Source: Escherichia coli O157:H7 (GTDB taxonomy: Bacteria > Pseudomonadota > Gammaproteobacteria > Enterobacterales > Enterobacteriaceae). Taken from it: 64,000 nucleotides of DNA. Both the position numbers and the translations under genes were made by a program. The notes below the pieces were generated by a model. It saw nothing but the letters and a program-made list of their open reading frames with translations. It was not told the origin of the DNA and ran no database searches. Location of the stretch: assembly GCF_013167455.1 (NCBI RefSeq), contig NZ_CP038328.1. One strand, written 5' to 3'. Shown piece by piece: positions 59,844 through 59,921 of the stretch (position 1 is its first letter; each line of letters starts with the position of its first letter).

Positions 59844-59873
59844 GGGAACTTCAGGGTAAAATGACTATCAAAA
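59844..59873 (+). promoter_or_regulatory. Sigma-E-type promoter upstream of greA
   Basis: GGGAACTT, 16-bp spacer, TCAAAA, matching the sigma-E consensus GGAACTT-N16-TCAAA. Confidence 0.55.
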
Positions 59874-59879
59874 TGTGAA

Positions 59880-59921
59880 TTGTAGCTGACCTGGGACTTG
59901 TACCCGGGTCGGTATTTTTTT
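59880..59921 (+). ncRNA. graL: greA leader RNA ending at an attenuator (GraL-like)
   Basis: hairpin gacctgggacttgtacccgggtc (59888-59910) followed by GGTATTTTTTT, about 95 bp upstream of the greA start; 5' end estimated from the promoter. Confidence 0.5.

Follow-up and report, generated by a model that had tools for sequence, protein, structure and literature searches.

What is the stretch of DNA immediately in front of greA in Escherichia coli O157:H7, and how would it act on the gene behind it? In a 64,000-nucleotide stretch of that genome (NCBI RefSeq assembly GCF_013167455.1, contig NZ_CP038328.1; hereafter the window), a first-pass annotation made from the sequence alone had proposed a sigma-E-type promoter upstream of greA, followed by an attenuator hairpin, an arrangement that would yield both a short leader RNA and read-through greA mRNA. 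Here, we conclude that the region is almost certainly the experimentally characterised greA P2 (sigma-E) promoter together with the GraL terminator, encoding the leader RNA GraL. In what follows, the sequence elements, their significance, the identity with K-12, the Rfam match, and the conservation and covariation across 94 species come from our own analysis, and the start sites, sigma dependence, transcript release, in vivo RNAs, and GreA feedback are taken from the literature on the identical sequence.

Identity and genomic context of the greA leader

Positionally, the locus lies in the dacB-greA intergenic region, directly 5' of greA and on the greA strand (Table 1). The full Rfam model RF01769, "Enterobacteria greA leader" (model positions 1–124), aligned to 59799–59920 on the + strand with a score of 127.5 bits (E = 1.2e-24), the gathering cut-off of this family being 60. 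Between 59500 and 60700, all matches to other Rfam families were sub-threshold (STnc420, STnc540, and HOTAIR_2). Of these, the HOTAIR_2 match falls within the greA coding sequence (60326–60397), and the STnc420 and STnc540 matches, at 60521–60566 just 3' of greA, are terminator-only matches. The hairpin on which the two STnc matches fall, at 60537–60559, is a perfect 10-bp one (AAAAGGCCGC-TAT-GCGGCCTTTT) with A-run and T-run flanks; it sits where greA and yhbY converge and looks like a bidirectional intrinsic terminator.

At the nucleotide level, the segment 59760–59938 is base-for-base the same as in K-12 MG1655 and takes in both promoters as well as the hairpin and U-tract described below. 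The only intergenic differences from K-12 are found at 59939 (G/A), 59981 (C/G), and 59990 (C/T), all three in the middle part of the read-through leader, where conservation is poor. The locus shares with the K-12 GraL / greA leader its dacB-greA context, the overlap of P1 and P2, the 11-bp stem, the AU7GCU2 tract, and a greA AUG at +150 from P1, and is unlike it only in these three single-base changes, all of which lie downstream of the terminator. Among complete E. coli genomes, the 401-nt region 59700–60100 was present, with greA and dacB annotated, in 5425 of 5426, and in the O157:H7 strains it was 100% identical to the window; the region was unmatched in one genome, and one copy lay on a plasmid record. 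From the sequence identity with K-12, we infer that these elements would function in this O157:H7-like strain as they do in K-12.

Table 1 Features of the greA leader region. Positions are those of the window; conservation is given as the number of Enterobacteriaceae species, out of 94, that retain the element.
Feature	Position	Strand	Basis and remarks	Conservation
greA P1 (sigma-70) -35 hexamer ATGACC	59834..59839	+	Promoter scan	94/94 (invariant)
greA P1 (sigma-70) -10 hexamer TAAAAT	59857..59862	+	Promoter scan	92/94
P1 +1	59867..59867	+	Inferred from published numbering (60016 - 149)	
greA P2 (sigma-E) -35 element GGAACTT	59845..59851	+	Exact consensus match	GAACT core, 93/94
greA P2 (sigma-E) -10 element TCAAA	59868..59872	+		TCAAA, 91/94; 16-nt spacing, 91/94
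P2 start	59878..59879	+	59878 if 11 bp from the P1 start; 59879 from RNA lengths of 37–47 versus 49–59 nt	
GraL intrinsic terminator hairpin	59885..59913	+	11-bp stem, 7-nt loop; folding, RNAalifold, published 11-bp stem	
U-rich tract A-U7-GCUU	59914..59925	+	Imprecise termination zone of ~10 nt; equals published AU7GCU2	
GraL RNA array	59867..59925	+	Longest form, from P1; P2 forms begin at 59878/59879; 3' ends at ~59915–59925	
Read-through part of greA 5' UTR	59926..60015	+		Middle poorly conserved; SD region (~60003–60007) conserved
greA coding sequence (158 aa)	60016..60492	+	ORF; annotated greA in 5425/5426 E. coli genomes; aligns to K-12 b3181	
dacB (PBP4), divergent neighbour bounding the intergenic region	58335..59768	-	ORF; annotations	

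Overlapping sigma-E and sigma-70 promoters

The claim of a sigma-E promoter at 59844–59873 proved exact. Read directly, GGGAACTT occupies 59844–59851 and is followed by a 16-nt spacer (59852–59867) and by TCAAAA (59868–59873), and over the core GGAACTT-N16-TCAAA (59845–59872) all 12 positions agree with the sigma-E consensus, which has been published as GGAACTT N16 TCNAA (PMC2836576). This is the sole site with zero or one mismatch in the 64-kb window, for which chance predicts 0.01 exact sites and 0.31 sites with at most one mismatch, and the number of sites with two mismatches is that of the background (5 observed against 5.7 expected). The site coincides with the published P2: in K-12, sigma-E holoenzyme transcribes P2 in vitro in an ApA-primed reaction, with the P1 and P2 starts 11 bp apart (PMC2836576), and the bases at 59878–59879 are AA, fitting this mode of initiation. 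Beyond E. coli K-12, sigma-E ChIP-seq in Salmonella placed a peak in the dacB-greA interval, replacement of the motif abolished binding, and direct activation by sigma-E concerned greA rather than dacB (PMC4577112). The core sigma-E regulon likewise includes GreA (Rhodius et al. 2006, PMC1312014).

Missed by the first-pass annotation was a sigma-70 promoter, P1, that overlaps the sigma-E promoter and was recovered by promoter scan as ATGACC-17-TAAAAT with 9 of 12 matches. In K-12, greA 5' ends located by primer extension led to the description of two strong overlapping promoters, P1 and P2 (Potrykus et al. 2010, NAR 38:1636, PMC2836576), of which P1 is sigma-70-dependent and by itself gives a reporter activity about equal to that of P1 and P2 combined (PMC2836576). 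The P1 start in the window follows from the greA AUG being at +150 relative to P1 (Dylewski et al. 2019, PMC6829880 Fig. 1), and the dinucleotide A59867-T59868 found there fits the published in vitro initiation of P1 with ApU. Functionally, P1 supplies most of the basal greA transcription, and the sigma-E share in greA expression is modest; because the overlapping sigma-70 promoter is strong, sigma-E tops up a high basal activity and is not an on-switch for greA. P2 is like the core sigma-E regulon promoters in its GGAACTT-N16-TCAAA architecture, in a start about 6 nt past the -10 element, and in driving a gene whose product belongs to the regulon, but unlike them in that it overlaps a strong sigma-70 promoter and has the -10 hexamer of the latter (59857–59862) within its sigma-E spacer.

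The GraL terminator and its leader RNAs

Structurally, the terminator stem is formed by 59885–59895 pairing with 59903–59913, with 7 of its 11 pairs G-C, and is followed by the tail ATTTTTTTGC; the hairpin was more stable than every one of 200 shuffled sequences, with a folding energy of −18.6 to −19.6 kcal/mol (z = −4.1 to −4.8). The hairpin plus U-run that had been placed at 59888–59921 is therefore real but slightly longer than described, as the stem-loop spans 59885–59913 and the tract extends to 59925, and the distance from the end of the T-run (59921) to the greA ATG (60016), given as about 95 bp, counts 94 nt. A role for the hairpin as a minus-strand terminator was rejected: its reverse complement has no T-run on the 3' side, and no gene converges on it.

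In K-12, the intrinsic terminator has been described as an 11-bp stem followed by AU7GCU2, which releases ~66% (two-thirds) of transcripts with 3' ends spread over ~10 adjacent positions (PMC2836576), and this ~66% termination stays constant through growth (PMC2836576). Clusters of GraL RNA of 40–60 nt were detected on northern blots, and release was assayed in vitro (PMC2836576); the lengths were subsequently given as 49–59 nt for RNAs from P1 and 37–47 nt for those from P2 (PMC6829880). Combining starts at 59867 and 59878/59879 with 3' ends at 59915–59925 reproduces these lengths exactly. The mapped starts lie upstream of the hairpin rather than downstream of it, and the short GraL-like leader RNA and the read-through greA mRNA anticipated by the first-pass annotation are both published for the identical K-12 sequence, in agreement with the RF01769 match and with the 40–60 nt RNAs of the northern blots. 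Among the papers searched, none with Term-seq data names GraL. A Shigella sRNA prediction paper lists "Ssr52" as predicted in the greA/dacB spacer, not marked there as RT-PCR-validated.

Conservation across Enterobacteriaceae

A search with a degenerate DNA pattern for the N-terminus of GreA returned 95 species-representative loci, every one from Enterobacteriaceae, and the window together with the 93 retrieved loci that were long enough gave 94 usable upstream regions. Across these, the elements of both promoters are retained at the frequencies given in Table 1; the perfect GGAACTT is found in E. coli, and most genera have TGAACTT or GGAACTC in its place. For the leader, RNAalifold applied to 80 distinct GraL-region sequences returned a single consensus helix, the same 11-bp stem, in which standard pairs make up 98.9% of cells and compensatory double changes occur in 5 of the 11 pairs. 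Its covariation score was 0.190 versus 0.149 for shuffles, with none of 500 shuffles reaching the observed pairing or covariation, and control structures in which the 3' partners were slid by 1–3 columns were 25–55% paired with covariation scores of at most 0.07. A previous comparison of four species had found that 17 of 18 stem substitutions keep pairing (PMC2836576). Support from covariation is moderate, as most stem positions are highly conserved. Evolutionarily, the retained promoter elements and the pairing and covariation of the stem place both promoter and terminator under selection, in agreement with the four-species comparison.

Two loci depart from this pattern on the promoter side. 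In an uncultured Enterobacteriaceae MAG and in Citrobacter sp. JGM124 (L035 and L080), TCAAA is lost and GATAAT or AACAAT is found instead, and the leader hairpin and T-run are kept via several compensatory stem changes (TTGGTTTGGGG...CTCCGAACC), which suggests that the terminator is retained even without the sigma-E promoter.

Alternative readings of the locus

Could the sigma-E match be fortuitous, with the sigma-70 promoter P1 alone driving greA? The near-equal reporter activities of P1 alone and of P1 plus P2, and the only moderate response to sigma-E induction, would fit such a reading, but a chance motif is rejected by an exact 12/12 site expected 0.01 times per window alongside two-mismatch sites at background, and the elements and their spacing are kept in 91 to 93 of 94 species. 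Given also in vitro transcription of P2 by sigma-E holoenzyme, occupancy in Salmonella by both ChIP-seq and ChIP-qPCR that is lost on motif replacement, and the place of GreA in the core sigma-E regulon, we assign a fortuitous match next to no probability. Very improbable, too, is a device of the classical attenuator or riboswitch type, with a leader peptide or a ligand toggling an antiterminator against the terminator. Such a device would likewise place a terminator in the 5'-UTR with partial read-through, and read-through does vary with GreA dosage in vivo; however, the leader has no conserved leader ORF, RNAalifold on the 80 sequences gives the terminator helix alone with no competing, mutually exclusive structure, the hairpin is preceded by only 7–19 nt, the greA leader is the sole Rfam family matching, termination is constant through growth, and the effector raises termination rather than relieving it. 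Leader-peptide attenuation and an antiterminator structure were rejected on the same evidence, the only AUG-UGA (59873–59878) being absent from other genera and a 50-aa TTG ORF (59898–60050) just overlapping greA out of frame. The greA leader is like the trp and his attenuators in that an intrinsic terminator in the leader sets the output of full-length mRNA, and unlike them in having no leader peptide, antiterminator, or coupling to translation, with ~66% termination as its default. The term "attenuator" used in the first-pass annotation therefore holds in the sense of a partial terminator in the leader, but not in the sense of a leader peptide or an alternative structure, and the effector, GreA, increases termination.

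The reading of GraL as mainly a trans-acting small RNA gene, with greA read-through incidental and the hairpin serving as the sRNA terminator, is unlikely but has evidence of its own: GraL overexpression shifts >100 transcripts and raises fitness, nudE mRNA has been reported as a trans target, and conservation of the +1 to +18 region goes further than a terminator requires. Against it, the candidate promoters P3 and P4 downstream of the terminator had activities of 17 and 6 Miller units and probably mark sites of processing; as there is no other functional greA promoter past the terminator, all greA mRNA therefore crosses it. GreA autoregulation, moreover, depends on GraL in cis, the fusion being unaffected by GraL provided in trans. 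The cis and trans roles are nonetheless compatible, and the authors who studied it call GraL dual-acting. In combining a cis role with a reported trans role, GraL is like other 5'-UTR-derived terminated RNAs that act in trans, such as the Listeria SreA riboswitch (cited in PMC6829880), whereas it is unlike SreA-type RNAs in that it has no ligand-binding aptamer or alternative fold, in that its ends spread over ~10 positions, and in that termination is enhanced by the downstream gene's own protein.

Two further features of the leader were noted. The AUG-UGA mini-ORF, carried by the P1 transcript just ahead of the P2 start, lacks an obvious Shine-Dalgarno sequence and is unconserved outside Escherichia. 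The leader as a whole folds no better than shuffled sequences (z = −1.41); its minimum free energy structure pairs the U-tract and GCUUCU (59914–59927) with the greA SD and AUG (60003–60019), both highly conserved segments, but of 93 species only 33% have this pairing in strong form and 39% essentially lack it, and it was rejected as a conserved feature.

Invariant blocks upstream of P1

Two blocks, 59799–59812 (GTCATACTACGGCG) and 59824–59840 (AAAGTAAACGATGACCC), are 100% conserved, without a single change among the 94 Enterobacteriaceae species, and so exceed the sigma-E -35 element in conservation. Both lie outside GraL and outside the transcripts of P1 and P2, and find no account of their conservation in the GraL and sigma-E literature cited here. 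On the minus strand, the blocks contain TTTACT-N18-TAGTAT (8 of 12 matches, under the promoter-scan threshold), and we tentatively raise the possibility, itself rather doubtful, that they are a divergent dacB promoter arranged back-to-back with greA P1/P2; other candidates would be an UP element or a factor-binding site. A dacB transcript went undetected by primer extension under the conditions of Potrykus et al. (PMC2836576). If the divergent promoter were real, polymerase carrying sigma-70 or sigma-E at greA would compete or be coupled with PBP4 expression. The RF01769 model draws three hairpins within 59799–59866, upstream of both mapped starts (59867 and 59878), and its upstream stems (e.g., GTCAT/ATGAC) are invariant and hence give no covariation for or against them; this upstream part of the model probably reflects promoter conservation, not RNA structure.

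Model of greA autoregulation and significance

In vivo, catalytically active GreA leads to more GraL and less read-through, independently of the promoter (PMC6829880). This effect requires the GraL sequence in cis (PMC6829880), is independent of Hfq, Nus factors, and sigma-E (PMC6829880), and is seen in vivo but not in vitro with a purified system (PMC6829880). Combining these published results with the coordinates above, we posit that P1 (sigma-70, 59867) and P2 (sigma-E, 59878/59879) would both fire into a 149-nt leader, in which the 11-bp GC-rich hairpin would form 19 nt (P1) or 7–8 nt (P2) past the start. The intrinsic terminator would then free about two-thirds of the RNA as GraL, at ~10 adjacent positions within UAU7GCUU, and the remaining third would pass through the 94-nt remainder of the leader to become greA mRNA. 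Through P2, greA would come under the envelope-stress (sigma-E) core regulon, and in vivo, catalytically active GreA would tilt the balance towards termination, amounting to negative autoregulation, a feedback that would need the GraL sequence in cis together with a postulated accessory factor or an indirect route.

The GraL / greA P2 locus is already known, and the window adds no new biology to it: a 2010 paper had already reported the locus with its promoters, terminator, and GraL RNAs, and a 2019 study took it further, which gives the present identification little weight as a discovery. It does illustrate that a validated regulatory element is recoverable from raw sequence, with coordinates right to within a few bases. 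The biology of interest, recognised as such in the literature, lies in the way GreA enhances termination in vivo, in the accessory factor that may mediate it, and in the spread of termination over 10 positions.
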